A stretch of DNA of 20,648 nt from a virus (Duplodnaviria; Heunggongvirae; Uroviricota; Caudoviricetes). The notes under the pieces are model-generated. The model was not told where the DNA came from. It was given only the letters and a program-made list of their open reading frames with translations, and made no database searches. Numbering within the stretch: position 1 is the stretch's first letter; every line of letters begins with the position of its first letter. The DNA lies in IMG/VR virus record IMGVR_UViG_2778261382_000002. One strand, written 5' to 3'. Of this stretch, positions 1 through 19,604 are shown piece by piece. Both the position numbers and the translations under genes were made by a program.

Positions 1-549
1 ATGCAATTTAATATCCCTACGTTGCTTACACTGTTCCGTGTCATCCTTATCCCATTCTTTGTATTGGTCTTTTATTTGCCTGTCACCTGGTCGCCGTTTG
101 CCGCCGCGCTCATTTTCTGCGTCGCGGCGGTGACTGACTGGTTCGATGGTTTTCTGGCACGCCGCTGGAATCAGAGTACCCGGTTTGGTGCTTTCCTTGA
201 CCCTGTCGCAGATAAAGTTCTCGTGGCTATCGCCATGGTGCTGGTAACCGAGCATTACCACAGCTGGTGGGTGACCTTACCGGCAGCAACGATGATCGCC
301 CGTGAAATTATTATTTCTGCGCTACGCGAATGGATGGCGGAGTTGGGTAAACGCAGTAGCGTGGCTGTCTCCTGGATTGGGAAAGTGAAAACCACTGCCC
401 AGATGGTGGCGTTAGCCTGGCTGCTGTGGCGTCCGAACATTTGGGTTGAGTACGCCGGTATTGCACTTTTCTTTGTGGCTGCGGTACTGACTCTGTGGTC
501 AATGTTGCAATATTTGAGCGCTGCGCGTGCAGATTTGCTTGATCAGTGA
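1..549 (+). CDS. pgsA: CDP-diacylglycerol--glycerol-3-phosphate 3-phosphatidyltransferase (phosphatidylglycerophosphate synthase)
   Basis: 182-aa ORF whose translation ([20 protein letters not shown]...[10 protein letters not shown]...FLDPVADK) I recognise as enterobacterial PgsA, with the CDP-alcohol phosphatidyltransferase D-G-x2-A-R...G-x3-D-x3-D motif. The glyW-cysT-leuZ operon directly downstream matches the E. coli locus order. Confidence 0.95.
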
Positions 550-599
550 TCGTTTCGGCGCAATTTTCAGCAAACGATCAAAAGTGGTGAAAAATATCG

Positions 600-627
600 T
601 TGACTCATCGCGCCAGGTAAGTAGAAT
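600..627 (+). promoter_or_regulatory. Sigma70-type promoter of the tRNA operon
   Basis: TTGACT (600-605), 16-bp spacer, TAGAAT (622-627), A/T-rich upstream stretch and a GC-rich discriminator-like stretch downstream, about 75 bp before tRNA-Gly. Sequence inspection only. Confidence 0.45.
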
Positions 628-700
628 GCAACGCATCGAACGGCGGCACTGATTGCCAGACGATAATAAAATCAAGTGATTAACTGATTGCTTGATGAAT

Positions 701-776
<76 letters not shown>

Positions 777-829
777 GTTTAAAAGACATCGGCGGCAGCG
801 GATGTCTGGCTGAAAGGCCTGAAGAATTT

Positions 830-903
830 GGCGCGTTAACAAAGCGGTTATGTAGCGGATTGCAAATCCGTCTAGTCCGGTTCGACTCCGGAACGCGCCT
901 CCA
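830..903 (+). tRNA. cysT: tRNA-Cys (anticodon GCA)
   Basis: 74-nt sequence GGCGCGTTAACAAAGCGGTTATGTAGCGGATTGCAAATCCGTCTAGTCCGGTTCGACTCCGGAACGCGCCTCCA, matching the E. coli tRNA-Cys as I recall it; anticodon loop TTGCAAA. Confidence 0.95.
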
Positions 904-915
904 CTTTCTTCCCGA

Positions 916-1002
916 GCCCGGATGGTGGAATCGGTAGACACAAGGGATTTAAAATCCCTCGGCGTTCGCGCTGTGCGGGTTCAAGTCCCGCTCCGGGTAC
1001 CA
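916..1002 (+). tRNA. leuZ: tRNA-Leu (anticodon TAA), long variable arm
   Basis: 87-nt class II tRNA GCCCGGATGGTGGAATCGGTAGACACAAGGGATTTAAAATCCC...GGGTACCA with TAA anticodon and extended variable arm. Confidence 0.95.
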
Positions 1003-1045
1003 TGGGAAAGATAAGAATAAAATCAAAGCAATAAGCAGTGTCGTG

Positions 1046-1069
1046 AAACCACCTTCGGGTGGTTTTTTT
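1046..1069 (+). terminator. Rho-independent terminator of the tRNA operon
   Basis: Perfect 8-bp stem AAACCACC/GGTGGTTT with TTCG tetraloop, followed by a T7 run. Confidence 0.8.
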
Positions 1070-1161
1070 GTATCTTCTTTTTCATTTCCGAAGATGCGTC
1101 CGAAGATGATTTTTCTCTGGACGCATCATCATTCATTTTCTCTGGCCACCAACTACGGGCA

Positions 1162-1416
1162 CTACTTTAACTTTTCGGTCATATGCTGCTGTCTGTCGTG
1201 GGTTCTTATGCCCGGAAATTGCTTGCTTCTCTTCCAGGCTGCCTTAGGCGTAATCAGTTCTGGTGGGGGGAATGCCGATTTCTCCCGCGTGACCTTAATG
1301 TTTTCTGGCAGGTGTAGCCCAAGTTCGCAGCGGCTCCGTGCTTCAATAATGCCATTGGTACCATCGGCAAGTACCAGGTGAACCGCGTCACCACGCTTTA
1401 ATGTGAGTTTAAGCAT
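1162..1416 (-). CDS. Hypothetical protein (84 aa), translationally coupled to the upstream recombinase-like remnant
   Basis: Its ATG (1416-1414 on the - strand) overlaps the TAA stop of the upstream - strand ORF (TAATG). No family recognised. The overlapping + strand ORF 1043-1381 looks non-protein-like. Confidence 0.35.
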   Translation of the reverse strand: MLKLTLKRGDAVHLVLADGTNGIIEARSRCELGLHLPENIKVTREKSAFPPPELITPKAAWKRSKQFPGIRTHDRQQHMTEKLK

Positions 1417-2172
1417 TAGCGTACCCTCAGCGAACGTTCGCCGCGTTCCAGATGTGCGCCTGGTACCGGGTTAAGTAATTCGGCAGGTGGTGTTTCTCCA
1501 CGCGCCATTATTTCTGCGGCAACCGCCTCCGCAGATTCAATCACTTCTTTAATGGCTCGCTTGTTTGGTGTAATAACCGTTTCTACTTCAACAAGTGACA
1601 CGCCTTCATACTCGTCCGGGATCTTATCTTTGCTATCGATAATTACCCGGATAGCCCCCTGTGCATCAGTAAATGTGTTTTTAGCAGTTTTCAATTTACG
1701 ATGAATATTCTTTATCGCCTTTGGCTTCTGCTGCTTTTCGGTGTACATCCACTTCGCGGGCGATGAGGCCAAATACCTTGTTTACTTCGTTGGTGGTTAC
1801 CGCGGCGGCCAGCGTATTGGCAACGTTGATCAGCTTCTCATCCAGTTCCTTACGAAGACGGGTAGCATCTTCCGCATTCTCGCTGGCATTCTTGATATCA
1901 AACTCAGCTTTATTCCTCTGGCGGTATTCCGGATTGTCGTACAGGCCCATGAAAATATCGGCGCTGAATCCGAGAGGGGATAGCGCTTTCTTAACAGCAT
2001 CCGTCCAGGATTTCTTCGGCGCTTCGCCGTCGCTTGTTGGTCCATGTCTAGTATCGTAGATGTACGGAGTGCAACCGTAAGCCGCAGACTCGCCGCGCAC
2101 CCCATTCAATATGTACCAGACTCTCACTTTCATGGTGTGGTGCATTTCACATAGGTACAGCGTGGCTGAGAT
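1416..2172 (-). pseudogene. Rad52/Sak-like single-strand annealing recombinase, N-terminally truncated and frameshifted
   Basis: ORF 1696-2145 (-) contains KKSWTDAVKKALSPLGFSADIFMGLYD, which resembles the Rad52-family signature (K-E-A-V-T-D-x-L-K-R-A-L...F-G...L-D-K as I recall it). Only about 45 residues precede this motif and an in-frame stop lies at 2173-2175, so the N-terminal half of the domain is missing. The C-terminal part continues in another frame (ORF 1416-1772), overlapping by 77 nt. Confidence 0.5.
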
Positions 2173-2587
2173 TCAGTTAGTAATTCGTTGGGTTATTGCG
2201 ACATGGCGCCGTCGTAGCGGAAGCGTTCCGAAACCTGCGAACATTTGCCGCGTAAACCGGTTTGACGGATACCTGGCTGACGCTGAGACGTGGGCCACTG
2301 CTGAGGCTGCCGTTGACCCTGCTGAAGTTGTGAAGGGCTACAACGAGATTCTGGGCGACCTGCTACCTATAGCTGAAATTGATACTGACCGCCGTCGGGC
2401 AATCCTGCGCCTGCTGGCACATATGCGCACGCAAACTCTTGGCGCATTTATCGGCTACTTCGAAAAATTCCGCGATAACGCCCCAGACTTCTATTTCGGC
2501 GGCGAATATCGCACCGGCTGGCGGGCAGGGTTTGATTACCTGATGAAGCCAGAAACACTGCGTAAAACCAGGGAAGGGGCATTATGA
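2111..2587 (+). CDS. Phage replication initiation protein, C-terminal fragment (probably N-terminally truncated), coupled to the helicase gene
   Basis: The C-terminal roughly 100 aa (AEVVKGYNEILGDLLPIAEIDTDRRRAILRLLAHMRTQ...FGGEYRTGWRAGFDYLM) resemble the conserved C-terminal domain of phage O-like replication proteins that partner DnaB-type helicases. The first roughly 55 codons are W/C/R-rich and look non-coding. Stop overlaps the helicase start (ATGA at 2584-2587). Confidence 0.4.
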   Translation: MYQTLTFMVWCISHRYSVAEIQLVIRWVIATWRRRSGSVPKPANICRVNRFDGYLADAETWATAEAAVDPAEVVKGYNEILGDLLPIAEIDTDRRRAILRLLAHMRTQTLGAFIGYFEKFRDNAPDFYFGGEYRTGWRAGFDYLMKPETLRKTREGAL

Positions 2588-3975
2588 ATCCAGAAGAACT
2601 GGAAGCGATCGTTCTCGCTGGTCTGATTAACGGTGGCGCGACGCCTGACGCGTTTGATGTGATTGCCACTACTCCGGAGGAAGCCTTCAGCATCGTGTTT
2701 CACCGTCGCGCTTTCAGCGAAATCAAAAAGCAGGCACTGGCGAACGGCATGATCGACATGTTGTTTATCAGCGAAGCGCTGGGCGGTTCCAGCCTTGCGG
2801 ATCTGTCTCAAATATCCCGGATCCCGGCAACGGTACCGAATCTGAAAGGCTATGCCGGGAAAATGGTGCGGGCATGGCGGAGCCGCAAAATGGCGGCATT
2901 GTTGCAATCTGGCGCGGATGGTATCCGTAACGCTGTAAACCAGAGTCAGCGTGATGAGGTTATTGAATCTCATGTTGCTCAGGTGCTGGATATGAGCGCC
3001 GCTACCGGCACAGTCCAGCCGGTACACATCAAAGAGCTGTTACCGCTCTACATTGACACCGTTGATAAACGGATGTCTGGCGACGCGCAGGAAATGATGC
3101 TGAAAACCGGAGTCGAGGATCTGGATGTCGCCCTGGGCGGTATCAACATGACCGACCTTGTTGTGGTTGCCGGTCGTCCAGGCATGGGGAAAACGGAATT
3201 TACCCTGAAGATTATCGATGGCGTTACCGCAGATGGCGGCGGCGCACTGTTTTTCAGCATGGAAATGGGCGCTCAGCAGATTGTTGAACGTACCGTTGCC
3301 GGGGCTGGGAATATGTCCACGTCGCGTCTGCGTAATCCAAAAGAAATGGACGATGAGGATTTGACCAGATTAACCGCCGCGCTTGCAATCATGCAGGATC
3401 GCGATATCTGGATTGTTGATGCCACTGATTTGACGATTGAGCAGATCCGCGCCATTGCAGAGACTCATAAACGCCGTTATCCGCACCTGAAGTTGATTGG
3501 TGTTGATTACATGGGCCTGATCAAAAAACCGAAGGCCGAGCGCCACGATCTCGCTGTCGGGCATATCTCCCGCAACATGAAGACTATGGCCATGCGTCTG
3601 CATACCCCTGTTTTTGCTCTTAGCCAGCTTTCCCGCCAGGTGGATTCTCGACCTGCTGGCCAGCGTCGCCCGGTGATGTCGGACCTGCGCGATTCCGGCA
3701 GTGTTGAGCAGGACGCTGACAGCATTTTGTTTTTGTACCGCGATGAAGTTTACACACCTGATTCACCTGCAAAGGGTATCGCCGAGGTGATTATCGGTAA
3801 AAACCGTTCTGGCGGGGCAGGTGAAATTATTTATCAGGAATTCCGGAATGGGCATTTCCTGCCAGTTGATCAACACGTAGCACGCGAAAAATTACGCATC
3901 CAGAAGGAGGCAGAGCAACCGAGAAAACGTGAAAAACGGTATTCAAACAAAAACTTTAATACGGACCCATTTTAA
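2584..3975 (+). CDS. Replicative DNA helicase, DnaB family (phage-encoded)
   Basis: 463 aa with Walker A GRPGMGKT, DnaB-like N-terminal domain and C-terminal RecA-like core motifs (FFSMEM, LSQLSR, SDLRDSGSVEQDAD). Size and motif spacing are typical of DnaB. Confidence 0.9.
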   Translation: MNPEELEAIVLAGLINGGATPDAFDVIATTPEEAFSIVFHRRAFSEIKKQALANGMIDMLFISEALGGSSLADLSQISRIPATVPNLKGYAGKMVRAWRSRKMAALLQSGADGIRNAVNQSQRDEVIESHVAQVLDMSAATGTVQPVHIKELLPLYIDTVDKRMSGDAQEMMLKTGVEDLDVALGGINMTDLVVVAGRPGMGKTEFTLKIIDGVTADGGGALFFSMEMGAQQIVERTVAGAGNMSTSRLRNPKEMDDEDLTRLTAALAIMQDRDIWIVDATDLTIEQIRAIAETHKRRYPHLKLIGVDYMGLIKKPKAERHDLAVGHISRNMKTMAMRLHTPVFALSQLSRQVDSRPAGQRRPVMSDLRDSGSVEQDADSILFLYRDEVYTPDSPAKGIAEVIIGKNRSGGAGEIIYQEFRNGHFLPVDQHVAREKLRIQKEAEQPRKREKRYSNKNFNTDPF

Positions 3976-4013
3976 CCACGCATGACCAGCGTGAAATAAC
4001 CGAGGAAAGACCA

Positions 4014-4424
4014 ATGACCACCATTTCAGGCAAATTAGAGTACCCGTCGGACAAAGGACACATAGACGACGGTAAAAACTATCTCGACGTCATTTTGTGG
4101 AATATGAACGCCGGGCCACGTGCGCGCACTCGTGCGGTTTTTGTACCAAGACCCAAAGCAGGCAATTTTTCAACACCAGCTCAGCCTGCCCGTCAGGCAT
4201 CCGTAGCCGCAGCGCCAGCAGTGAAATGTAAGGGTAAAACGCACATCGGGATCGCGATTCGCAGAAATGGTGAGCGGCAAGTGAAACTCCACGAAACAGC
4301 GACAACCTGGTGTGCCTCACCGCATGAAACTTACGACAAGATAACCGGACAGCGCATTGGCGCGCCCGGTCGCTGTCGCCTGCTGCTGAGTTCCATCACT
4401 CCGATAGCAAAGAAAGGGACGTGA
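4014..4424 (+). CDS. Hypothetical phage protein (136 aa)
   Basis: ORF preceded by GAGGAAAG Shine-Dalgarno; first gene of a tightly packed small-gene operon. Pro/Ala-rich middle and three Cys; no family recognised. Confidence 0.45.
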   Translation: MTTISGKLEYPSDKGHIDDGKNYLDVILWNMNAGPRARTRAVFVPRPKAGNFSTPAQPARQASVAAAPAVKCKGKTHIGIAIRRNGERQVKLHETATTWCASPHETYDKITGQRIGAPGRCRLLLSSITPIAKKGT

Positions 4425-4425
4425 T

Positions 4426-4662
4426 ATGGCAGGGCAATCAGATTACCTGCCGCCCGGCTTACCACACAACCGCGCCAAATGGCCTCAGGAATACCTGCTT
4501 AAAGAGCACTACGACATGCGAGCGGCGACGCTGATCCGCCAACTCTTTGAGAAACGTATTCCGAGGGGAAGCGTGATTGAGCAAATCGGAATGACGCCGG
4601 ATACGTACCGGGAATTTTTCAGAGAGCGTCTGAACTACTGGAGAGGGGGGATGGAGCAATGA
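4426..4662 (+). CDS. Hypothetical phage protein (78 aa)
   Basis: Starts 2 nt after the previous stop; its stop overlaps the next start (ATGA). No family recognised. Confidence 0.45.
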   Translation: MAGQSDYLPPGLPHNRAKWPQEYLLKEHYDMRAATLIRQLFEKRIPRGSVIEQIGMTPDTYREFFRERLNYWRGGMEQ

Positions 4663-4970
4663 AATACAAACGGTGGGTGCGTGCGGAAGTCGTAATCATC
4701 AAACAATGTGCGGGCAGCATGATAGTTGAACGTATAGGGCAGCTTATTGGAAGAACCGGTGCTGCGGTACGCACAAAAGCGCGCGAGTTGAAAATCTGTA
4801 TGTATCTGCGGGGTAATTATCACCAGTCAGTGAAATACCGCCAGGAGGATATCGAGCTGGCAAGGGAATTACATCAGTCGGGTATTAATCGCCAGGATAT
4901 CGCGGAAAAACTCGAAATGTCGATCGGTGCGGTGAATCAGTATGTTTATTTTGAGCGGAGGATTTCATGA
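4659..4970 (+). CDS. Hypothetical protein with two helix-turn-helix-like segments (103 aa); possible DNA-binding regulator or small-terminase-like remnant
   Basis: SMIVERIGQLIGRTGAAVRTKAREL and INRQDIAEKLEMSIGAVNQYV both have HTH-like character. Translationally coupled on both sides. Confidence 0.45.
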   Translation: MKYKRWVRAEVVIIKQCAGSMIVERIGQLIGRTGAAVRTKARELKICMYLRGNYHQSVKYRQEDIELARELHQSGINRQDIAEKLEMSIGAVNQYVYFERRIS

Positions 4971-5191
4971 AAGAACTTTTTCTGGCATTTGTGCCCCGGT
5001 TTATTAATGACCAGATCGCACTGACTGATAATGGTGAACAATATGAAATTGCCTGCAGCATGGTGGATGTGAATCCTGGCGAACGGTATGACGCGATGTG
5101 TGACCTGAAAATATTTACCTGGCTGGGTTGGGCTATTCCGTGTGGAGAACCAACCAATATTCGCCCATTTGAGAGCAGGGAGGCTGTATGA
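4967..5191 (+). CDS. Hypothetical phage protein (74 aa)
   Basis: ATGA-coupled to the upstream gene; no transmembrane or enzymatic motif recognised. Confidence 0.4.
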   Translation: MKELFLAFVPRFINDQIALTDNGEQYEIACSMVDVNPGERYDAMCDLKIFTWLGWAIPCGEPTNIRPFESREAV

Positions 5192-5304
5192 GTGAGTTGA
5201 AAATACGTCGCAAGGCAATAGCACACGTTAAAAATCCATTACCAGTGCCCGCCGAATGCCATTTTTGTGGTGGGAATGTACGGATTGGTACGTATGTATG
5301 GTGA
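5188..5304 (+). CDS. Small hypothetical protein (38 aa) with one CxxC motif
   Basis: Not in the supplied ORF track (below 60 aa). ATG at 5188 overlaps the upstream stop (ATGA) and is preceded by GGGAGG 4 nt upstream. Product MSELKIRRKAIAHVKNPLPVPAECHFCGGNVRIGTYVW. Confidence 0.3.
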   Translation: MSELKIRRKAIAHVKNPLPVPAECHFCGGNVRIGTYVW

Positions 5305-5378
5305 TTGCGGAGTGACGTAAAACGAATCGTTGTGGGTGTAATATCGTCAATATCATTGGTTTCCCGGAGGGAAAGGAC

Positions 5379-5528
5379 ATGTTTGGCGATAAACTGGAGT
5401 TACCACGGAACGGGCGGATAGTGCTCTATATTTCAGATTACAAAGTAACCAGGGCTGAGGTGTTGGAACCGGAAAAACATCTGGTCACGTTACCGGACAT
5501 TATTGAGTTGTATAAGCGGGTCGGATAA
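5379..5528 (+). CDS. Small hypothetical protein (49 aa)
   Basis: Not in the supplied ORF track. Strong SD (GGAGGGAAAGGA) immediately upstream of ATG 5379. Product MFGDKLELPRNGRIVLYISDYKVTRAEVLEPEKHLVTLPDIIELYKRVG. Could alternatively be a remnant of a deleted upstream gene. Confidence 0.3.
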   Translation: MFGDKLELPRNGRIVLYISDYKVTRAEVLEPEKHLVTLPDIIELYKRVG

Positions 5529-5546
5529 CGGCTGGGGAGGTAACTG

Positions 5547-6854
5547 ATGCCGTGGAACAATTTTCCGCACCTCGCCGCCAGGGCGTTCAATCAACCGCTT
5601 TTGCTGGAGCCCACCTACGCGCGGGTATTTTTTTCGGCGCTGAGCGACCGGTTCGGTACCGGGCGACTGATTGATACAGCGTCTGGAGAGGTAATGAACA
5701 GCGACGAAATGAACGCGCTCGCGATGGGGTGGGACAGCAGCGAGCGAACACGCCAGAAATCGTATCGCGTGGAGCGTGGTATAGCCGTTCTGCCGGTTAC
5801 CGGGACGCTGGTTCATAAATTGGGTTATATCAACCCAGTTAGCGGGATGAGCGGTTACGACGGAATCGCAAAACGCCTGCAGCAGGCGATTTCTGATCCC
5901 GATGTAAGAGGGGTCCTGCTTGATATTGACTCCCCTGGCGGTGAAGTCGCCGGCGCGTTTGATACTGCTGATTTAATCGCCCGGGCGCGAGAGCAAAAAC
6001 CTGTGTGGGCGCTGGCCAGCGATACGGCCTGCAGCGCTGCCTATTTGCTGGCGTCAGCGTGTTCGCGCCGGCTGATAACGCAGACAGGCACAGTTGGTTC
6101 AATCGGTGTCCTGATGGCTCACCGCTGCGTCGAAAAAGCGCTGGAGATTGCTGGCGTCGACGTGACGCTGATTTACGCCGGCGCGCACAAAGTTGACGGG
6201 AACCCGTATTCCCAGCTGCCAGGCGACGTTCGCGACGAATTCCAGCTGAGTATTAACAGCACGCGCGAGCAGTTCGCGCAAAAAGTCTCGGATTATACCG
6301 GGCTGAAAAAATCCAGGGTGCTGGCCACGGAAGCTGCAGTATTTATCGGCGCGGACGCGATTAAATCTGGTCTCGCTGATCAACTCGTTAATTACGCGGA
6401 CGCTATCGCAGTGATGGCCGACGCACTGAAACCAAAAATGGAGCGCTTTATGTCTGGTACAGAAACCACGGCGGAGACCACGACCACAGAACAAACCGCG
6501 ACCACGACTACTGTCGCGCAGGTTGAGTTTAACACGGAGCAGATTCGCGCGGACGCCGCATCAAGCGAACTGGCGCGTGTGATGGCCATCATCAATTGTC
6601 CCGAAGCTGTTGGGCGCGAGGCGCAGGCAAAAGCGCTCGCTGGCGTCCCCGGGATGACGGTCGGGCAGGCGCAGGTAGTCCTCGCTGCAGCACCTAAAAC
6701 GGCGCAGGCGCGGACAGAAACGGCGCTCGATACACTAATGAGCACTGAATCACCAGCGACTATTCAGGATGCTGGCAGTACTACGGCAACAGGAACAACC
6801 GCAAACGTCTCGATGCTGGTTGCTGCAGGGCGTTCAATTTTAGGGGATGAATAA
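5547..6854 (+). CDS. Head maturation protease / minor capsid protein C (S49 ClpP-SppA-like), lambda gpC-like
   Basis: 435 aa; N-terminus FNQPLLLEPTYARVFF, GIAVLPVTGTL, DSPGG, KPVWALASDTACSAAYLLASAC and IYAGAHKVDGNPY parallel lambda gpC as I recall it. Strong SD GGGGAGG upstream. Confidence 0.9.
   Translation: MPWNNFPHLAARAFNQPLLLEPTYARVFFSALSDRFGTGRLIDTASGEVMNSDEMNALAMGWDSSERTRQKSYRVERGIAVLPVTGTLVHKLGYINPVSGMSGYDGIAKRLQQAISDPDVRGVLLDIDSPGGEVAGAFDTADLIARAREQKPVWALASDTACSAAYLLASACSRRLITQTGTVGSIGVLMAHRCVEKALEIAGVDVTLIYAGAHKVDGNPYSQLPGDVRDEFQLSINSTREQFAQKVSDYTGLKKSRVLATEAAVFIGADAIKSGLADQLVNYADAIAVMADALKPKMERFMSGTETTAETTTTEQTATTTTVAQVEFNTEQIRADAASSELARVMAIINCPEAVGREAQAKALAGVPGMTVGQAQVVLAAAPKTAQARTETALDTLMSTESPATIQDAGSTTATGTTANVSMLVAAGRSILGDE
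6450..6854 (+). CDS. Putative nested scaffolding protein (Nu3-like), in-frame internal start within C
   Basis: In-frame ATG at 6450 with GGAG 6 nt upstream (another in-frame ATG at 6438); the product would be the C-terminal roughly 135 aa of C, analogous to lambda Nu3 nested in C. Inference from organisation. Confidence 0.35.
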   Translation: MSGTETTAETTTTEQTATTTTVAQVEFNTEQIRADAASSELARVMAIINCPEAVGREAQAKALAGVPGMTVGQAQVVLAAAPKTAQARTETALDTLMSTESPATIQDAGSTTATGTTANVSMLVAAGRSILGDE

Positions 6855-7183
6855 TGACTACAGAAACGTATAGCCCGGACGATTTTATTCTTGGGCCTGA
6901 CCTTGTTGTCACGACCGTCGGTCATTTTCAGGGCGGGATCAACGTACCCCGGCTGACACCGATTATGCTCGACGCTACTGTCGGGACGTTTAAGGTTTGG
7001 GACGGCTCAGTCGGTAAAGCTATTGGCCTCACTGCCACCGCAGTTAATACTGGCTCCAGTTCTGCAGACTGCTCGTACTATAAATCAGGCTCGTTCCGTT
7101 ACACGGCGATTAACTGGGGTACGGTTACCGACGTAGCTAAACGCAAATCAGCATTTGTGGGTACGCCGATCAGCGTCGGCTGA
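6854..7183 (+). CDS. Head decoration protein, lambda gpD-like
   Basis: 109 aa; TPIMLDATVGTFKVWDG, YYKSGSFRY and AFVGTPISVG parallel lambda gpD (TPLMLDTSSRKLVAWDG, FYKSGTFRY, AFAGTAISIV). TAATG overlap with the C stop. Confidence 0.85.
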   Translation: MTTETYSPDDFILGPDLVVTTVGHFQGGINVPRLTPIMLDATVGTFKVWDGSVGKAIGLTATAVNTGSSSADCSYYKSGSFRYTAINWGTVTDVAKRKSAFVGTPISVG

Positions 7184-7202
7184 TAGCAAAAAACTCAAAA
7201 CA

Positions 7203-7225
7203 AGCCGCCTCCGGGCGGTTTTTTT
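7203..7225 (+). terminator. Putative intrinsic terminator or attenuator after the decoration gene
   Basis: GC stem CCGCC/GGCGG with 4-nt loop, followed by a T7 run, 20 nt after the D stop. Confidence 0.5.
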
Positions 7226-7241
7226 ATAACAGGATATATAA

Positions 7242-8276
7242 ATGAGCGATTCGTTTACTACGTCAGAACTGATTACCGCGACACAGCAGGTATTTAAGTT
7301 CAATCCGTTGTTTTTAAATCTGTTTTTCCGTGAGACCTACACGTTTACGAGCGAAGAGGTTTTTCTGGATAAAATCCCGGGAAAAGTGAACATGGCCGTG
7401 TACTGCGCGCCGATGATCACCGGCAAAGTTGACCGCACTCGCGGCTATTCAACGAACCATTTCAAACCGGGTTACACGAAACCCAAGCACACGATCAATC
7501 CGAATATGAGCATCAAGCGCGCAGCCGGTGAGCAGATTGGCCAGCCGGAAACGCCGGTCGAACGTCGTGCAAAAATCATCATGCAGAACCTGCTTGATGA
7601 GGAACTGAGCATCAGCCAGCTCGAAGAGTTCCAGGCGGTACAGGCTGTTCTGTACGGTAAATACACTGTTTCCGGCAGCAATATCGAGACATATGAGATC
7701 GACATGAGCCGCAGCGCGACGAATAACGTCACTCAGTCCGGTTCGACAGCCTGGTCGACTCAGGACGCGGAAACGTATGACCCGAGCGACGATATTGAAT
7801 CCTACGCGGACCTCGCCTCCGGTGCGGTTAACGTGATCATCATGGATGGTAAAGCCTGGAAGCAGTTGAAGCGTTTTAAAAAATTCTGGACGGCACTGGA
7901 TACGCGCCGTGGCTCAAACAGCCAGCTCGAGGTCGCGCTGAAAAACCTGGGCGACGTTGTCAGCTTTAAAGGCTACTACGGCGACACTGCGCTGTTTGTC
8001 TACAAAGGGCAATACCTCGACCCGGTAACAGATACTGAAACGCGTTATATGCCGGATAACACGATGATCCTTGGCAACACAAAAAACCGCGGGCTCCGCA
8101 CTTATGGCGCAATTCAGGACGAAGACGCGCTGAAAGAGGGTATTTCCGAAGCGACGCGCTATCCAAAAGTCTGGACCACTACCGGTGATCCGGCAGTGAC
8201 GCAAACAATGACGCAATCCGCGCCAGCAATGGTCCTCACGGACGCCGACGCGTTCGTTGTCGTAAAAATCGCGTAA
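7242..8276 (+). CDS. Major capsid protein, lambda gpE-like
   Basis: 344 aa; FKFNPLFLNLFFRETYTFTSEEVFLDKIPG, PGYTKPKH, IIMQNLLDEELSISQLEEFQAVQAVLYGKYT, LDTRRGSNSQLE, PDNTMILGNT, LRTYGAIQDEDA and RYPKVWTTTGDPA closely parallel lambda gpE. Confidence 0.93.
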   Translation: MSDSFTTSELITATQQVFKFNPLFLNLFFRETYTFTSEEVFLDKIPGKVNMAVYCAPMITGKVDRTRGYSTNHFKPGYTKPKHTINPNMSIKRAAGEQIGQPETPVERRAKIIMQNLLDEELSISQLEEFQAVQAVLYGKYTVSGSNIETYEIDMSRSATNNVTQSGSTAWSTQDAETYDPSDDIESYADLASGAVNVIIMDGKAWKQLKRFKKFWTALDTRRGSNSQLEVALKNLGDVVSFKGYYGDTALFVYKGQYLDPVTDTETRYMPDNTMILGNTKNRGLRTYGAIQDEDALKEGISEATRYPKVWTTTGDPAVTQTMTQSAPAMVLTDADAFVVVKIA

Positions 8277-8296
8277 GAGTCGAAAGGCTCTTTTTT
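8277..8296 (+). terminator. Putative intrinsic terminator after the major capsid gene
   Basis: Stem GAGTC/GGCTC with GAAA tetraloop, followed by T6, immediately after the E stop. Confidence 0.45.
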
Positions 8297-8310
8297 GTTA
8301 AGGAATCAAC

Positions 8311-8730
8311 ATGAGCACAAAAACAGAATTGCTGGCGCGTATTGACGATATGAGCGCTCAGCTCGGTCGCGAATTACCGCGCAGCGGGACTATTGCGGAA
8401 CTGGAATCAATCGTTGCCGGCGCTGAGTCAGAGCTCGATATTCTGAACGAGCAATCCGGTGACGCGGGAGGCATCGAGATTACAGTGAATACTGCGTCCG
8501 GGACCGATAATGAACTCGCTCAATCAATCGCGAGCGCTATCGTTTCACAGTCACAAGAGCAGGAGCTCGCACCGGCTACGCGCCGCGTCAAGTTGCGTAA
8601 CACGCTGGACGTTTATCACTACGTGAACGGGCGTCGCGTTCGCGAGATTGTTGCCGCAGGCCGTGAAATTGTTGTTGATTCACCGGAGGTCGCAGACCTT
8701 ATCGCAGCTGATCACGTTTACGCTCTATGA
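8311..8730 (+). CDS. DNA-packaging accessory protein, lambda gpFI-like
   Basis: 139 aa; N-terminus MSTKTELLARIDDMSAQLGRELPRSGTIAELESIVAGAESELD parallels lambda gpFI (MTKDELIARLRSLGEQLNRDVSLTGTKEELALRVAELKEELDD). Position after E as in lambda. Confidence 0.7.
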   Translation: MSTKTELLARIDDMSAQLGRELPRSGTIAELESIVAGAESELDILNEQSGDAGGIEITVNTASGTDNELAQSIASAIVSQSQEQELAPATRRVKLRNTLDVYHYVNGRRVREIVAAGREIVVDSPEVADLIAADHVYAL

Positions 8731-9107
8731 GCTACTACGATGACCTCCGGGCCGGCGACGAGGAGATGATCCGTGAGTGGGGACGGCCCGTTAAATTACG
8801 CGGTAAAACCGACCCCATTATCGCTATTTTCAACGAGCCTTACGCGCGCGTTGACGTTCCTCACGCTGGTTTTATTACCGGTACAGTAACGAGCCTGACG
8901 GCGTTCTCGGACGACGTCGCTGGCGTTGTTGCGCGTGACGTCGTCCAGGTTCCAAAGCAGCGCAGCATCGAACCTGACGGCTCTGTTACCTGGTCTGGCT
9001 GGACCGATTACGTGGTTAAAGAGCCTCAACCTGATGGCACAGGGCTCACGAATATTTTTTTAGAGCCTCACACGTCCAGCGAAAACAGCGAGTATTCAAA
9101 ATACTAA
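8727..9107 (+). CDS. Head-tail joining / head completion protein, lambda gpFII-like
   Basis: 126 aa; ATGA-coupled to FI; overall pattern resembles lambda gpFII; position conserved. Confidence 0.55.
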   Translation: MSYYDDLRAGDEEMIREWGRPVKLRGKTDPIIAIFNEPYARVDVPHAGFITGTVTSLTAFSDDVAGVVARDVVQVPKQRSIEPDGSVTWSGWTDYVVKEPQPDGTGLTNIFLEPHTSSENSEYSKY

Positions 9108-9138
9108 GTGGGACCTCGGTCCCACTTAAGGGGGAACC

Positions 9139-9819
9139 GTGGCCGATTTACGTAGTAACGCGCAGATGTTCGATATCGATGTTTCGGCGCTGGAGCAGCT
9201 CAGAGTCGAAATCAGCGCGACGCAACATCAAATGTTAATGGTATACAACAGGGCGCTGAACCGAACTGCAAAACATATGCACCGAATTTCAGCAGGAATG
9301 ATTTTGACTGCACTGGCAGCTAAAAATCATAAGGCCGTAGATAAACGAATCAAGCCGTTCATTAAGCGCCGTAATTTTACAAAAGAAGGGGCAGGAGACC
9401 TGAGCAGCGCCAAGCTCTGGTACGGTCTGAATGATTTCCGGGTATCTGAGCTAAAGGGGCGATTACAAAATCCACGGAGGCAAAAACAGCCTCGCGATCT
9501 TGAGACCGGCCTGTTTTTGAAAACCAAAAAAGGCGCTAGAGGGGCAACTTTTACACCCAAAAGTGCAGGGCTGGCGATGATGAGTTGGCCCGATTCATTC
9601 GTAGCGAAACGCTACGGTGCGAAAAGTGTCTGGATTCGACTGGATCGCGGAGGAATCGAAGAGGCTCGCGTACCTGTGCACGACGCGCTGGAGGATGCTA
9701 TCGATGATTATATTTTTGAAAACATTGGCCCTGTTTTTATGGGCTTTTTTGAGAAAGATTTGCGCGGTCGCGTGAAAGGTAATGTCCACGTAGACCCAAA
9801 AACAGGTAAACGATTATGA
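9139..9819 (+). CDS. Putative head-tail connector or tail completion protein (position of lambda Z / P2 R-S)
   Basis: 226 aa, GTG start preceded by strong SD AAGGGGG; basic protein between head-completion and baseplate genes. Function inferred from position only. Confidence 0.4.
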   Translation: MADLRSNAQMFDIDVSALEQLRVEISATQHQMLMVYNRALNRTAKHMHRISAGMILTALAAKNHKAVDKRIKPFIKRRNFTKEGAGDLSSAKLWYGLNDFRVSELKGRLQNPRRQKQPRDLETGLFLKTKKGARGATFTPKSAGLAMMSWPDSFVAKRYGAKSVWIRLDRGGIEEARVPVHDALEDAIDDYIFENIGPVFMGFFEKDLRGRVKGNVHVDPKTGKRL

Positions 9820-10352
9820 GCGGACTGGATGCATTTGACGAATATCTTGATCGCGTTAAAGGCGCGGTTTTACAAATACCGTTCATCAAAACATTCGGAA
9901 TTTATCCGGAAATTCCGGCTGGATTTGAAACGCCAGCTCTGTTCCTGGAAATCAGCAACTGGTCACAGAGTGACGAATCGGTTCCAGGCTCAATTCAGTC
10001 AGTCGAGCTGTCGTGTAATTTGTATTTGCTGCGTGAATTTGCAGCTGATCAGTACGGACTGAAATCGCAGAATGCAGCGCTCTATATGACGAGCTGGATC
10101 AATGGGCGAATGTTCGGTCCCGGAACTAAACCGGCAAAATTCAGCGACGCGGAACCGTGCGACTGGATTAAAAACGGGCAGTCAGTCGGTTCGCATTCAG
10201 TTCAGTGCGTGTCGTTCACGCAGGTTGTAGGCGTTGGTCCAGATATTTTCGATTATCCCTCACAGGGGACCCTGAAAAATATATACGTCGGAATAGCACC
10301 AGATATCGGCGCAGAACATGAGGGCGACTATTATGGCCCAATCGGACGATGA
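9816..10352 (+). CDS. Putative tail completion / tail terminator protein (position of P2 gpR-S / lambda gpU)
   Basis: 178 aa, ATGA-coupled to the upstream gene, immediately precedes the baseplate spike gene. Function inferred from position only. Confidence 0.4.
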   Translation: MSGLDAFDEYLDRVKGAVLQIPFIKTFGIYPEIPAGFETPALFLEISNWSQSDESVPGSIQSVELSCNLYLLREFAADQYGLKSQNAALYMTSWINGRMFGPGTKPAKFSDAEPCDWIKNGQSVGSHSVQCVSFTQVVGVGPDIFDYPSQGTLKNIYVGIAPDIGAEHEGDYYGPIGR

Positions 10353-11235
10353 ATATGCTGCAGCGGAGAACGCGCGCAGGCTGCGTGACGCAGTTAAACG
10401 CGGCACGATAGCTGCAGTTAAAATGAATCCTCCACGCTGCCGAGTCTCATTTGGTGGCGAACACCAGTCAGGCTGGCTGCAGTGGTTTACTCACGCCACC
10501 TCAGAACGCGTCGACTGGAGCGCACCATCAGTGGGCGATCCCGTTACTGTTGTTTCTGAGGGTGGGGATACGCGGAACGGTGTAGTTATGCTCGGGCTGC
10601 ACATTGACGACAAAGCTCCGTCAAGCAATGACCCCCATGATCATGTCACTGCATACTGTGACGGGGCTACGATGACGTATAACACAAAAAATCACACTCT
10701 GACATGGCAGGGCGTACCGGACGGCGTGGTAAAAATACTCGGTGAGTCTGAAATAGAAATATTTGGACGCGCAGATGTTACTATTAATAGCGAAAATGTA
10801 GTTAATATCCATGGTGGGAAATTAATTAACGCAGACGCTGATATTATTAATGTCACAGCGACAGATACAATTAACGCACATGCTGATTTAGTGAACGTTA
10901 TAGCAACGAGTTCTGTTAGTGTTACTGCTGCGAACAGAATATCGCTGACAGCTCAAACAATCAGCGCGTGGGCTCCGGGTGGTATAACACTAGCTGGTCC
11001 AACGCATATTACCGAGACATTAGTAGTAGATAAATTAGCGACATTCCGTAACGATATTTCTGTCACTGGAGATAACGGTGGAACAGGTAATATCACAACT
11101 CGCGGTAGTGTGTTAGCAGGGCAAGAGGTGCAGGACCGACAAGGCACAATGACTGAGGTCCGCACAACGTACAACGGACACACTCATATATGTCCGGACG
11201 GGGAAACACAACAACCGAACCAACCAATGGCGTAA
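10333..11235 (+). CDS. Baseplate central spike protein, P2 gpV-like
   Basis: N-terminal region CRVSFGGEHQSGWLQWFTHATS...WSAPSVGDPV parallels P2 gpV; C-terminal beta-helix-like repeats (VTINSENVVNIHGGKLINADADIINVTATDTINAHADLVNV) and an apex HxH motif (YNGHTHICPDG). ATG 10333 has GAGGG 8 nt upstream; the ATG at 10318 is an alternative start. Confidence 0.85.
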   Translation: MAQSDDEYAAAENARRLRDAVKRGTIAAVKMNPPRCRVSFGGEHQSGWLQWFTHATSERVDWSAPSVGDPVTVVSEGGDTRNGVVMLGLHIDDKAPSSNDPHDHVTAYCDGATMTYNTKNHTLTWQGVPDGVVKILGESEIEIFGRADVTINSENVVNIHGGKLINADADIINVTATDTINAHADLVNVIATSSVSVTAANRISLTAQTISAWAPGGITLAGPTHITETLVVDKLATFRNDISVTGDNGGTGNITTRGSVLAGQEVQDRQGTMTEVRTTYNGHTHICPDGETQQPNQPMA

Positions 11236-11237
11236 AT

Positions 11238-11579
11238 ATGCTTGGAATGGACCGTAACACCGGTAAGCCTTTATCGGGGACTGATCACATTTGTCAGTCT
11301 ATCGTTGATATTTTAACGACCCCGCTGGGAACCCGTGTAATGTTGCCGGAATACGGCAGCAAATTATTTGACCTCGTTGATAATCCCACTGATCCGTCGC
11401 TTGCTATGAGAATAATAATGGAAAGTGCAGGAGCAATAGCACGCTGGGAACCACGCGTCAGAATTGACAGAATAAATGTGTTAGCAGTGGACATCGGGAA
11501 AATAACAATATTAATTATCGCAACAGATATCGAAACACAACAGCGATTAGAGTTTAATAATATGGAACTGATATTTTGA
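11238..11579 (+). CDS. Baseplate wedge protein, P2 gpW / T4 gp25-like
   Basis: MLGMDRNTGKPLSGTDHICQSIVDILTTPLGTRVMLPEYGSKLFDLVDNP parallels P2 gpW (YLGMNRSDG...HISQSIGDILRTPVGSRVMRRDYGS). Start chosen by alignment; the track ORF begins at 11190. Confidence 0.85.
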   Translation: MLGMDRNTGKPLSGTDHICQSIVDILTTPLGTRVMLPEYGSKLFDLVDNPTDPSLAMRIIMESAGAIARWEPRVRIDRINVLAVDIGKITILIIATDIETQQRLEFNNMELIF

Positions 11580-12496
11580 TAACATCAACAGTTCAGAATT
11601 CGATAGTGAAAACTATTGATATGAGTCTGCTGCCGCCGCCAGCATTCGTTAAAACCCCATTATTTTCAGATGTTAAATCCAGTCTACTGTCAGAATTGCA
11701 GATATTATATCCACAATTTAACGCACTCCTGGAGTCAGACCCGGCCGTTAAACTGCTGGAAATAGTTGCATACAGAGAAATCATTATTACAGCTCGGGTA
11801 AATCAGGGGATGCTCGCTGTATTGCTCGCGTTTGCAAAAGGGAGTGACCTCGACCAGATCGGCGCTAATTTTGACTGCCTGCGGCTGTTGATAACGCCAG
11901 CTAATCCTGACGCAATTCCTCCGACTGAGGGGGTTTACGAGAGTGACGACGAGTATCGTCATCGCATACAGCTATCATGGTACGCGCGGAATACTGCCGG
12001 CAGTACGAACGCCTATAACTATTTCGCGCTGTCGAGTGATCCCGACGTTCTGTCAGCTCAGGCGTACGGCCCGCCGGTGACCCAGCCTGGATACGTCGAT
12101 ATGTATGTTTTGTCGCGAACCGGCGACGGCACTCCGCCTCAATCACTACTGAATACAGTGAATGCGGCCCTGTCTCCTGACGATACTCGACCGCTGACTG
12201 ATTTCGTGACTGTAAAACCTGCGTCGAACCTGAATTACCGGGTTGAAGCCGTTATCGTAGCGGGGCTCGGTCCCGATCAGAACGTGTTGCTCAACGGTGC
12301 TCAAAGCGATTTAGCTATATACGTGGCTACACAACATAAAATCGGGGCGACAGCAGCCCTGTCAGGAATTTACGACGCGATACATCGTGACGGAACGGAG
12401 CGTGTGATTCTGATATCGCCAACAGAGGATGTGATTGCTGGCGTCGGACAGGCTCCGTACTGCACAGAAATCAAACTCAGCGTGCAAATGGGGTAG
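11576..12496 (+). CDS. Baseplate assembly protein, P2 gpJ-like
   Basis: 306 aa; KLLEIVAYREIIITARVNQ, DLDQIGANFDCLRLLITPA and ESDDEYRHRIQLS parallel P2 gpJ. The track start at 11576 is TTG; the ATG at 11621 (MSLLPPPAF) is a plausible alternative. Confidence 0.88.
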   Translation: MITSTVQNSIVKTIDMSLLPPPAFVKTPLFSDVKSSLLSELQILYPQFNALLESDPAVKLLEIVAYREIIITARVNQGMLAVLLAFAKGSDLDQIGANFDCLRLLITPANPDAIPPTEGVYESDDEYRHRIQLSWYARNTAGSTNAYNYFALSSDPDVLSAQAYGPPVTQPGYVDMYVLSRTGDGTPPQSLLNTVNAALSPDDTRPLTDFVTVKPASNLNYRVEAVIVAGLGPDQNVLLNGAQSDLAIYVATQHKIGATAALSGIYDAIHRDGTERVILISPTEDVIAGVGQAPYCTEIKLSVQMG

Positions 12497-12498
12497 CC

Positions 12499-13125
12499 AT
12501 GACAAGTCAAAGCGTACTGCCTCCGAACGCAATAACCCCTGAGAGGGCGCTTGAGGTTGTTTTATCTCACGTCGGCGATCTGCCTGGCGATATTCGAATT
12601 ATTAAAAATCCCGATTTGTGCCCTGCAAATCTGTTGCCGTGGCTGGCGTGGGAGTACGCGGTCACCTACTGGAACCCCGACTGGAGCGAGCAGCAAAAAC
12701 GCGAAATTATTAAGGCCGCAGCCTGGCAAAATAAACATCGCGGCACGCGTGGTGCCGTCGAACGAGCATTATTAACGGTGGGATTTGAGAGCAAAATGAG
12801 AGAGTGGTTTGAAGCCACGCCCAGGGACGACCCGTATACATTCGCAATTAAAATATATCTGCTAAAAAGTATAGGGTTAGATTTAGAACTATTGAATACC
12901 TTTATTGCACAAATATTTGATGCAAAAAATTGCCGTTCCTTATTAAAAGAAATAAATTTTGAAACGGGTGTCGATGGTGAATTTTTTATAGCTGGTGCGC
13001 CTTACGCGAAAATAGGCGTAAATATCCCAGCAGACGGCGACGGCGGTGTAAAAATTAACGGCGGGCTATATATATCAGGCTCGCCAATTGTGAGTTTGTT
13101 AGTGGAGATAGGACCTAATGGCTAA
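12499..13125 (+). CDS. Baseplate / tail protein, P2 gpI-like
   Basis: 208 aa immediately after gpJ in conserved order; LLPWLAWEYAVTYWNPDWSEQQKREII is typical of the gpI family. Confidence 0.8.
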   Translation: MTSQSVLPPNAITPERALEVVLSHVGDLPGDIRIIKNPDLCPANLLPWLAWEYAVTYWNPDWSEQQKREIIKAAAWQNKHRGTRGAVERALLTVGFESKMREWFEATPRDDPYTFAIKIYLLKSIGLDLELLNTFIAQIFDAKNCRSLLKEINFETGVDGEFFIAGAPYAKIGVNIPADGDGGVKINGGLYISGSPIVSLLVEIGPNG

Positions 13126-14329
13126 ATTAAAATCAAATCTGAAAGCGAGCGCGAGCCAGGTTTATGCGGTACTGACAGACCGGGGGGCGCAACTTGAAGC
13201 CGCTGCGCTGGCATCGGGTGTACCCGTGGTGCTGAATAAATTCGTTATTGGCGACGCAAACGGAAACGACGACGTAACACCGGACCCGGCACGAACTGCA
13301 TTAATTCACGAGACGTATCGTGGGGATATTAAATCCGCAGAAAATAGCGGTAACCAGGTTATCTTTACACTTTACGTACCGCCAGACACTGGGGGCTATA
13401 CTATCCGTGAGGTGGGGATATTAACAGATAAAGGCGAGCTGTACTCTGTGGCGCGCTCGCCGGACATTTTAAAACCTACGGACAGCAACGGTGCGCTGAT
13501 TTCAATCACGTATAAATACACACTCGCGGTGTCCAGCACATCTACGGTTAATGTTGTAGTATATGACAACTACGTAACTCCCGAGGAAGCTGACAAAAAA
13601 TATTTGCAGATAAGTAAAAACTTATCTGAAATTCCCGCAAATGGTGAAACTGCTCAGCAGGCTGCGCGGAAAAATATTGGTATAGATGGGGACGTTGCAT
13701 ATAGAGATAAGGGTAATGCATTTACTCATCCAAATACTTTTAAAGATGATGTGATTTTTGAAGACGTTTTATCCTCTAAAAAACAAATAAATATAAACAA
13801 ACCGGGCACTGATTTGACGTTGTTTTCACTTGCTGGTTTATCAGATGTGTCGGGCGATTATTTAGATTTTTCGACCCGTGGAGAAAACAATCAGAAGGTT
13901 TTTTATAGATTACGCGGAGTTCACTATGATGGCCTGGTATTACTGTGTGGCGGAATGACGTATAAATACTGGAATGAGGCTAATCTTAAACCGGTTAAAA
14001 CGATTAACGGGGAGTCGCCGGATGAAAATGGCAACATAGATATAAGTCTTTCACCGGACCCATCACCGGAAATAGGTGTTGTTGGCGCGGTTAATACTTA
14101 TGCGCTTGTCGCTATTAATCATGCACCACAAATACTACCGGGCTCCATATGGGCTGGAGGTGATTTATATTACGCTAGTATAAATAATACCGGTTCATAT
14201 AACACGGATATTGCCACAAAACCATTTTATGACACACCCCTTGTTGGCTCATGGCGAGCTATGGCGTATTCACCAGGCGGGGTCGGTGATATTGGGACTG
14301 CCTGTTTTTTAGCTATTAGGATTGCGTAA
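13118..14329 (+). CDS. Tail fiber protein (P2 gpH-like N-terminal domain, divergent A+T-rich C-terminal receptor-binding region)
   Basis: N-terminal roughly 150 aa (VIGDANGNDDVTPDPARTALIHETYRGDI...YVPPDTGGYTIREVGILTDKGELYSVA) parallel the P2 gpH N-terminus. The C-terminal roughly 250 aa are unrelated and visibly more A+T-rich. Confidence 0.85.
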   Translation: MAKLKSNLKASASQVYAVLTDRGAQLEAAALASGVPVVLNKFVIGDANGNDDVTPDPARTALIHETYRGDIKSAENSGNQVIFTLYVPPDTGGYTIREVGILTDKGELYSVARSPDILKPTDSNGALISITYKYTLAVSSTSTVNVVVYDNYVTPEEADKKYLQISKNLSEIPANGETAQQAARKNIGIDGDVAYRDKGNAFTHPNTFKDDVIFEDVLSSKKQININKPGTDLTLFSLAGLSDVSGDYLDFSTRGENNQKVFYRLRGVHYDGLVLLCGGMTYKYWNEANLKPVKTINGESPDENGNIDISLSPDPSPEIGVVGAVNTYALVAINHAPQILPGSIWAGGDLYYASINNTGSYNTDIATKPFYDTPLVGSWRAMAYSPGGVGDIGTACFLAIRIA

Positions 14330-14619
14330 TGATAAGTGTTGATTCATTTAGAAAAATAACAAACCCTGTTTTTAATGACGAGCATGGGTTATCTATAAAT
14401 ATTATTTGCGATATTGACGGGATTGGAAACGACATTCCATTCACCGCAATGAAAAATGATTGCGAGGAACACGGTAGGGTTTTATATGAAAGAGCGCTGA
14501 GCGGGGATTATGGGAGCATTTCTAAATTTGTAAAAAAGAGCAGACGCAAAAACTCCAGACTACATTACGGACTGTTGGCGATCTGTCAATTGAGGCATTC
14601 TCAATTCAGTGTGCAGTAG
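14329..14619 (+). CDS. Putative tail fiber assembly chaperone (possibly frameshifted; continuation 14526-14717 in another frame)
   Basis: TAATG-coupled to the fiber gene, in the expected Tfa position. A second frame open from 14526 to the TGA at 14715-14717 encodes ...SIQCAVDAGTASDAQIENLAELKEAIATRIGENREGIK, which resembles Tfa C-terminal motifs; the frames meet at an A6 tract (14532-14537). Confidence 0.45.
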   Translation: MISVDSFRKITNPVFNDEHGLSINIICDIDGIGNDIPFTAMKNDCEEHGRVLYERALSGDYGSISKFVKKSRRKNSRLHYGLLAICQLRHSQFSVQ

Positions 14620-14713
14620 ATGCCGGAACCGCATCTGACGCGCAAATCGAAAACTTGGCCGAGCTTAAAGAAGCAATAGCGACGCGAATTGGTGAAAATA
14701 GAGAAGGAATAAA

Positions 14714-16216: not shown

Positions 16217-16233
16217 TAATTCGGAGATTAAAT

Positions 16234-16746
16234 ATGTCAGACAGCAACGCTTACCGCGCGTTTGCGCTATTCGTGCAGGGCGAACGGGTTTTAAATTGTA
16301 CTGAATATACTCCAGTCGATATGAAAATAATCGAAGACGAGTTTAAAACAGGCGCGATGGATACAGCTATCACTCTGGACGGAGGAATGGAGAAAATGTC
16401 AGCCAGTTTTAAAGTCTCTGGCTCCGATTCTGGTGTGATGGGGTATTTTGGATTAATACCAGGTGCTAAAACAAGGTTCGAAATTCGAAGTGCATATACT
16501 GACAATTACGGTGTCAATTTTGAACGTATTGATACATATGAGGGGCTTATTACGGCGATTACTGATGACGCGCAGGGGACTGATTCAAAATCAGCAGTTG
16601 GGCAATCAGTAACGATTGCGCCGAGCTATTATAAACGAGTTCAAAATGGAAAAGTTATTTACGAGATTCATCCTGCAAAAATGAAACGAGTAATTAATGG
16701 TGTTGACGTTCTTGCGGGCGTTGCTCGTATTCTCCATGTATATTAA
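16234..16746 (+). CDS. Tail tube protein, P2 gpFII-like
   Basis: 170 aa directly after the sheath gene; C-terminus KRVINGVDVLAGVARILHVY resembles the P2 FII C-terminus; GGAG SD 8 nt upstream. Confidence 0.88.
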   Translation: MSDSNAYRAFALFVQGERVLNCTEYTPVDMKIIEDEFKTGAMDTAITLDGGMEKMSASFKVSGSDSGVMGYFGLIPGAKTRFEIRSAYTDNYGVNFERIDTYEGLITAITDDAQGTDSKSAVGQSVTIAPSYYKRVQNGKVIYEIHPAKMKRVINGVDVLAGVARILHVY

Positions 16747-16758
16747 AAGGCAAATAAA

Positions 16759-18789: not shown

Positions 18790-18791
18790 CA

Positions 18792-19214: not shown

Positions 19215-19388
19215 TACAAAATCAAGCGCTACCAGAGCACTTAACAAGTATAAAAATAATAAAAAAAACTACGAACATAAATGTAAAACAACCTGATGGT
19301 ATTTTTTTTTGACGCCGAAATACTAATACCTCTCCGACTACTAAAATTAATTCTCATTATGAAATCCTTTTAATTAATGGGGCCCCAA

Positions 19389-19601: not shown

Positions 19602-19604
19602 TGA

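Follow-up and report, generated by a model that had tools for sequence, protein, structure and literature searches.

The junction between the tRNA gene leuZ and the phage genes that follow it raises two connected questions: what became of the integrase that should have brought the element there, and what are the short direct and inverted repeats that lie between the tRNA gene and the phage? The stretch of DNA that we analyzed (the window, 20,648 nucleotides of a virus assigned to the Caudoviricetes) carries host genes at its left end and phage genes beyond. The original prediction, made for positions 1003–1161, held that no integrase lies beside the tRNA gene and that the repeats could be remnants of att arm sites or an operator. 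We propose that this interval is very probably the attL of a defective leuZ prophage, formed by an integrase similar to lambda Int, and that the direct repeats are its P′ arm-type sites.

Comparing the window with 5,426 complete E. coli genomes (RefSeq assemblies, among which clinical lineages are over-represented) shows where host homology ends. In K-12 and in most other genomes the match stops at window position 1071 (query position 172), where the T-run of the tRNA-operon terminator ends, and past the equivalent point the aligned K-12 sequence runs on to yecA. The DNA from 1072 onward is therefore insert DNA, which bears out the view that phage sequence begins directly 3′ of the leuZ terminator. 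The repeats would have been host DNA if they also followed leuZ in strains without the prophage. K-12 and most genomes part from the window at 1072, so a host origin is rejected and the arm carrying the repeats is phage-derived. The segment 1072–1245 is found in 439 of the 5,426 genomes, nearly always as a single copy per genome. Many of these strains are ST131, and in all 40 sampled rows the match overlaps an annotated tyrosine integrase. The features of the junction are collected in Table 1.

Table 1. Features of the leuZ junction, in window coordinates (., no strand assigned).
Feature	Position	Strand	Evidence or remark
pgsA			Opens the window, ahead of the tRNA genes
glyW	701–776		tRNA gene
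cysT	830–903		tRNA gene
leuZ, tRNA-Leu(UAA), intact	916–1002	+	Last in the glyW-cysT-leuZ operon; ARAGORN; Rfam tRNA model, 57.7 bits
Putative attL copy of the 125-bp identity block (leuZ 3′ half, spacer, terminator)	947–1071	+	Second copy at the far end
leuZ anticodon loop, TTTAAAA; inferred strand-exchange (overlap) region	948–954	+	Left edge of the identity blocks
Intrinsic terminator of the tRNA operon	1045–1071	+	Stem-loop 1045–1066 plus T-run; terminator scan
Phage-specific P′ arm of the putative attL, 61 bp	1072–1132	.	Between identity block and int stop; lacking in K-12
Tandem repeat copy 1, TCCGAAGATG, proposed arm-type site P′1	1087–1096	+	Repeats at the same position in relatives
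Tandem repeat copy 2, TCCGAAGATG, proposed arm-type site P′2	1099–1108	+	12-bp period
Inverted repeat, GATGCGTCC / GGACGCATC	1093–1127	.	Arms 1093–1101 and 1119–1127; left arm bridges the join of the tandem copies
Second direct repeat, TTTTCTCTGG	1111–1145	.	Copies 1111–1120 and 1136–1145; repeat finder
Integrase pseudogene, last 36 codons (GSLEEKQAISGHKNPRQTAAYDRKVKVVPVVGGQRK) and stop (1133–1135)	1133–1243	-	Identity to WP_001531780.1
Deletion junction, 2-bp overlap (TT)	1244–1246	.	BLAST against Z135-3
Chimeric 84-aa ORF across the deletion	1162–1416	-	No Pfam family

The window stops short of the far end of the element, which we read in two near-identical strains, AHB18 and CEA601S. Their elements are 100% identical to the window or nearly so, with four substitutions and one 1-nt indel in CEA601S. 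In both strains the element is closed by an exact second copy of the 125-bp block (35311–35435 of the AHB18 locus, L004, and 34508–34631 of the CEA601S locus, L088), so a search of the far end for a repeat of the leuZ 3′ end, as had been proposed, does find one. The K-12-type flank and yecA directly adjoin this copy. In K-12, which represents the empty site, the block is single, and the right flank of the element is identical to K-12. Comparison with prophage-free strains also places attL as had been suggested, with the K-12 alignment ending at 1071 and the duplicated block starting at 947. The annotation of the far end in AHB18 and CEA601S contains no integrase; the element finishes there with a gpD-like tail gene and one small hypothetical gene. 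The far-end (P) arm was found in 432 genomes, close to the count for the P′ arm, so the two arms belong to one phage family.

The original prediction put the host-prophage junction just after the terminator. This holds for the start of phage-only DNA but not for the point of recombination, which is probably inside leuZ, at the anticodon loop, because the 125-bp block begins there. The block starts at 947 here and at 948 in a P2-like element integrated in tandem, and the leuZ homology in the attP of the phages mEp390, ZF40 and Fostie begins at the same base as the identity block. In anticodon-loop integration, the phage brings the 3′ part of the tRNA gene and thereby rebuilds the gene. An anticodon-loop class of tRNA integration sites was reportedly described by Williams in 2002. 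As in that class, the block opens at the 5′ edge of the 7-nt loop and takes in the rest of the tRNA gene, and integration would therefore regenerate an intact tRNA. The present case differs in that the crossover is placed from block boundaries rather than from sequence markers. Natural markers for mapping the crossover would be available in mEp390, whose leuZ copy (L005, ~700–760, against window 965–995) carries paired changes in the T-stem, GCGGG/CCCGC to GTGGG/CCCAC. These changes preserve pairing, so a tRNA rebuilt with them would stay functional.

The tandem P2-like prophage lies between leuZ and the remnant in CEA601S (NZ_CP166713.1; L088, 1–14125). Its integrase has only 27% local identity to the leuZ-integrase family studied here, and its junction is at a partial leuZ copy that starts at 948. 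At least two integrase families therefore appear to share the same point in leuZ, and the tandem arrangement indicates that the remnant leaves the leuZ site open to reuse.

The spacer between leuZ and its terminator (1003–1044, AATAAAATCAA...GCAGTGTCGT) is kept across many genera and in the attP copies of phages. Within it, AATCAAAGCAATA comes close to the IHF consensus and may mark a point where IHF bends the att DNA; alternatively, the conserved spacer may just be phage-spread. An Rfam search of 560–1500 scored the three tRNAs and returned two sub-threshold sRNA matches, both on the terminator region, and gave no match to a known RNA family at the junction.

The claim that no integrase lies beside the tRNA gene is right for an intact gene, but the 3′ end of a tyrosine-integrase gene is there, and its last nine codons and stop fall within 1003–1161. 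The 36 remaining codons are identical to residues 303–338 of the intact 338-aa integrase WP_001531780.1 of strain Z135-3, and the intact Z135-3 gene ends exactly at window position 1133. RefSeq labels the remnant ‘integrase, incomplete’ in three strains nearly identical here, 19AR1724, AHB18 and CEA601S. Relative to Z135-3, 1,355 bp are gone in a single deletion with its junction at 1245/1246: BLAST aligns window 1–1245 with 3102–4346 of the Z135-3 locus (L002) and window 1244–1698 with 5702–6156. Lost with this segment were int codons 1 to ~302, a DUF4224 gene at the xis position and the spacer beyond. The DUF4224 gene, identified by Pfam, adjoins the intact int gene in Z135-3, where lambda has xis. 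On this alignment, the missing integrase is explained by the mapped internal deletion.

This arrangement is similar to that of cryptic (‘grounded’) prophages lacking int and xis, in which the recombination module has been deleted with both att sites kept, and in which replication and packaging genes have been hit by further deletions. There is nothing unusual in the window in this respect, although its deletion lineage is rare, the deletion-type junction being present in 5 of the 5,426 complete E. coli genomes. The 84-aa ORF that spans the deletion begins in a small phage gene and enters the int remnant out of frame, and it is probably not a real gene. A Pfam scan of the small and unnamed ORFs of the window found no hidden recombinase; one sub-threshold helix-turn-helix match was to a 103-aa protein (4659–4967).

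Both the 10-bp direct repeat and the 9-bp inverted repeat are present as originally described. The two TCCGAAGATG copies lie ~25 bp ahead of the int stop codon. With a repeat finder, the inverted repeat lengthens to 17 nt with 82% complementarity (1090–1106 and 1114–1130), and the second direct repeat, TTTTCTCTGG, comes to light; the second copy of TTTTCTCTGG overlaps the final int codons, and its first copy is just partly conserved in close relatives. Chance is an unlikely origin for the junction repeats. Perfect direct repeats of at least 10 nt at 10–30 nt spacing occur twice in the 20.6-kb window, both times at the junction, and simulated windows contain a mean of 0.27 such repeats, with 0.7% of simulated 159-nt intervals containing one. 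The 9-bp inverted repeat was reached in none of 200 shuffles of the arm. The window and Z135-3 differ at three positions over 990–1245, none of them within the repeats.

Comparative evidence on what the direct repeats are comes from the arms of relatives. A scan for relatives, with one genome per species, returned 80 loci, and in 52 of them the int 3′ end faces leuZ; glyW and cysT could be seen as well at most of the 52. These leuZ-adjacent loci span Escherichia to Yersinia, Pectobacterium, Arsenophonus, Pantoea, Celerinatantimonas and Shewanella. They provide 45 distinct arms, all beside leuZ, with integrases that are 55–100% identical. Tandem repeats of at least 8 nt at an 11–13 nt period are found in 78% of the 45 arms, compared to 1.2% of shuffles, and these repeats, in two or three units, lie past the terminator copy and ahead of the int stop. 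Their position and period are conserved, whereas their sequence varies by lineage. The motif CCGAAGAT is shared by E. coli, E. whittamii, Raoultella and Enterobacter; other lineages have CAGAAGAT, CCTAATAT, CATAATAT, CGCCATT, CCTAACAT, CACTATA and others.

Three intact free phages show the same order of elements in their attP as the window, which holds a remnant. In mEp390, ZF40 and Fostie, whose integrases are 63–64% identical to the intact relative of the window remnant, a leuZ segment from ATTTAAAATCCC is followed by the terminator copy, tandem repeats and the int stop, and the mEp390 record marks the leuZ segment as a putative attP. Each phage has a repeat motif of its own (TTCGCCAT, three copies; TTCCTAATAT, two copies; and TTCATAATA, two copies). 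That motif recurs in the opposite (P) arm of the same phage, at ~-115 in the same orientation and at ~-51 inverted. Cross-phage matches in the P arm occur only between the two most similar motifs. In the window element, the -115 site, TTCAGAAGACG, departs from the motif at 2 of 11 positions and the -51 site agrees with it at only 7 of 11, so that its P-arm matches are weaker than those of its relatives.

Lambda is among the nearest known counterparts. Its Int is the closest relative of solved structure to the intact integrase (E ~1e-9), in which Pfam recognizes a central domain (Phage_int_M, 64–155) and a catalytic domain (Phage_integrase, 165–325). Residues 1–63, which precede the central domain, are the right size for an arm-binding domain and have no family assigned. 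The N-terminal 63–70 residues gave no significant match, to the arm-binding domain of lambda or otherwise, with phmmer or with a 27-sequence profile run against the PDB, and hhalign of the N-terminus against the lambda N-domain returned a probability of 1.5%. Identity over the N-terminal 70 residues is 0.68 for pairs of integrases with the same motif versus 0.49 for pairs with different motifs, but within equal bands of C-domain identity the difference is nearly gone (0.47 versus 0.46 and 0.56 versus 0.50).

At the DNA level, the junction resembles lambda attL (BOP′) in that a tyrosine recombinase gene reads toward the att site. It also resembles lambda P′1–P′3 in its tandem repeats of ~10 bp with a period of ~11–12 bp between core and int stop. 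Three arm-type sites stand in tandem right beside the int stop codon of lambda, an arrangement like that of the leuZ family, and in both systems the tandem sites remain at attL in the prophage and have related sites in the other arm. The differences are that the target is a tRNA gene rather than the gal-bio intergenic attB of lambda, that there are two clear copies rather than three, that the motif sequence is unrelated, and that int and xis have been deleted in the window. The distance from the core differs as well. Between the putative crossover and the repeats lie ~125 bp made up of the tRNA 3′ half and the terminator, and this places the proposed sites at ~+140 to +160, whereas the lambda arm sites are at ~+50 to +85. 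The tandem layout in relatives, together with the likeness to lambda, makes the direct repeats most likely orphaned P′ arm sites. Of the two options in the original prediction, att arm sites are thus favored for the direct repeats by the family-wide layout, and an operator is disfavored by the lack of a promoter.

The arm-site reading does not extend to the inverted repeat, which is not conserved across the family. Its right arm nearly repeats, in inverted orientation, the sequence where the two tandem units meet. Only E. coli and E. whittamii carry the full repeat; Enterobacter retains 6 bp of it and Raoultella none, even though both share the direct-repeat motif with E. coli. When its conservation was examined, most of the 45 relatives lacked a significant inverted repeat in the arm, and we rejected it as a family-wide feature. 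The inverted repeat may serve as an extra, inverted arm site, which would be the third, or may give the int transcript a 3′ hairpin, or it may have no role at all.

An RNA role could also be proposed for the repeats as a whole, with the inverted repeat and the tandem copies that overlap it forming a hairpin that terminates or stabilizes the int transcript; protein binding would then not be their function, or not their sole one. The int-sense strand of 1040–1140 indeed folds at -31.9 kcal/mol (z = -5.2), with the leuZ terminator hairpin supplying part of this fold; its long stem begins 2 nt past the int stop codon, and the rarity of the inverted repeat among shuffles also fits. However, no U-tract follows the hairpin, the terminator scan is empty on the minus strand here, and any inverted near-copy of a repeated motif would fold regardless. 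Most relatives keep the tandem repeats without the inverted one, which makes the RNA reading improbable. We consider it quite unlikely, too, that replication slippage or local duplication produced the repeats as functionless sequence in decaying, non-coding DNA of a dead prophage. The element is heavily degraded, and one short-range 10-nt repeat per 20-kb window is not rare, being seen in 24% of simulated windows. Yet the repeats are unchanged in prophages with an intact integrase, where the three Z135-3 differences fall outside them, and they match sites of the opposite arm. Slippage would also have to account for different sequences at the same position and period in most of the diverged relatives.

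Short direct and inverted repeats have a general likeness to operators, and this is what a control site for phage early genes has in its favor. A promoter scan of 560–2300 returned a single sigma-70-like promoter, that of the tRNA operon (600–627), and none in 1003–1500. The repeats are flanked by a terminator and the int 3′ end, with no repressor gene adjoining, and they keep their place with respect to the att core and the int stop rather than to any promoter; an operator is accordingly very unlikely. Finally, the contractile-tail genes of the window and its lack of an intact integrase might suggest a phage that never needed a neighboring integrase, either a transposable (Mu-like) phage or one with its integrase at the far end. 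We give almost no credence to this idea, since the junction holds an integrase remnant and the flanking repeat is 125 bp long and starts in a tRNA anticodon loop, unlike a short target duplication; these two features rule out a Mu-like or P2-like origin without an adjoining integrase. In addition, neither a far-end integrase nor any transposase, other than that of an IS1 missing from the window, is annotated in the elements of AHB18 and CEA601S, and the same leuZ site is used at 52 loci.

Taken together, these observations support a model in which the host 5′ half of leuZ would lead to a strand exchange at the anticodon loop. The leuZ 3′ half, spacer and terminator copy that follow would be phage-carried and would have left the tRNA gene intact, with the P′ arm and then the final int codons beyond them. 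When the phage was intact, Int would have occupied the TCCGAAGATG copies with its N-terminal domain, as at lambda P′1–P′3, while its core-binding and catalytic domains acted at the anticodon loop. The 1,355-bp deletion later took most of int and the DUF4224 gene, orphaning the presumed arm sites and leaving both att sites in place. Binding of Int to the repeats is what we infer from these layouts, and the 20-kb remnant is presumably unable to excise alone.

The diversity of the motifs suggests a further, speculative possibility, one that we think is probably wrong. Phages competing for leuZ may have diversified their arm sites into at least eight distinct motif classes with a fixed core, so that the remnant could be mobilized only by a phage of its own class. 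If this were true, the Int and Xis of one phage could not excise or disturb a neighbor at a shared, often tandem, site. The window remnant would be a complete attL/attR pair of the CCGAAGAT class, still excisable by a superinfecting phage of the same class.

Loss of the integrase with retention of the repeats is ordinary prophage decay and leaves current understanding unchallenged. For annotation, the leuZ junction would be best described as attL plus an integrase pseudogene, and the element as a locked-in remnant rather than an integrase-free oddity. The comparison also predicts an att layout for a widespread Enterobacterales family of leuZ integrases, with an anticodon-loop core, tandem P′ sites before the int stop, P-arm sites near -115 and -51 and lineage-specific motif classes. 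Such a layout could aid the placement of prophage boundaries and the choice of integrase/att pairs for engineering. A search of the literature on leuZ prophages and integrases, ST131, mEp390 and ZF40 found no account of the att arms of the leuZ family, although this kind of layout is itself well known. leuZ is mentioned as the integration site of an integrative element in O145:H28 (PMC7067040).

Decay of the element is also seen beyond int and xis, across window 1246–5546. A second deletion, of 368 bp at ~1697, truncates a Gp157-family gene and its neighbor, and RepO (2156–2587) is truncated at its N-terminus. A DnaB-like helicase (2584–3975) and a head protease (5547–6854) have no terminase, portal, lysis or repressor genes between them. 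The morphogenesis region (5547–20648) is a mosaic of a lambda-like head and a P2-like contractile tail. The head genes encode an S49 protease, a decoration-like protein, an E-like major capsid protein and FI, and the tail genes comprise baseplate V/W/J/I, sheath, tube, tape measure, U, X and D. Related prophages in ST131-type strains have only ~5.2–20.6 kb of the window in common, at 97–99.9% identity. In AHB18 (NZ_OZ546938.1; L004, 24318–26353), an IS1 with an adjacent deletion interrupts the baseplate V/W/J genes; the region corresponds to window ~10318–12496, where the window has no IS1 insertion, and the window therefore derives from a sister of AHB18 rather than from AHB18 itself. A GenBank entry, ON470596.1 (‘Escherichia phage vB_EcoM-569R10, complete genome’, 19.9 kb), begins with host yecA, includes attR and stops within the terminase gene, and it appears to be an incompletely extracted prophage, derived from the intact relative, rather than a phage genome.
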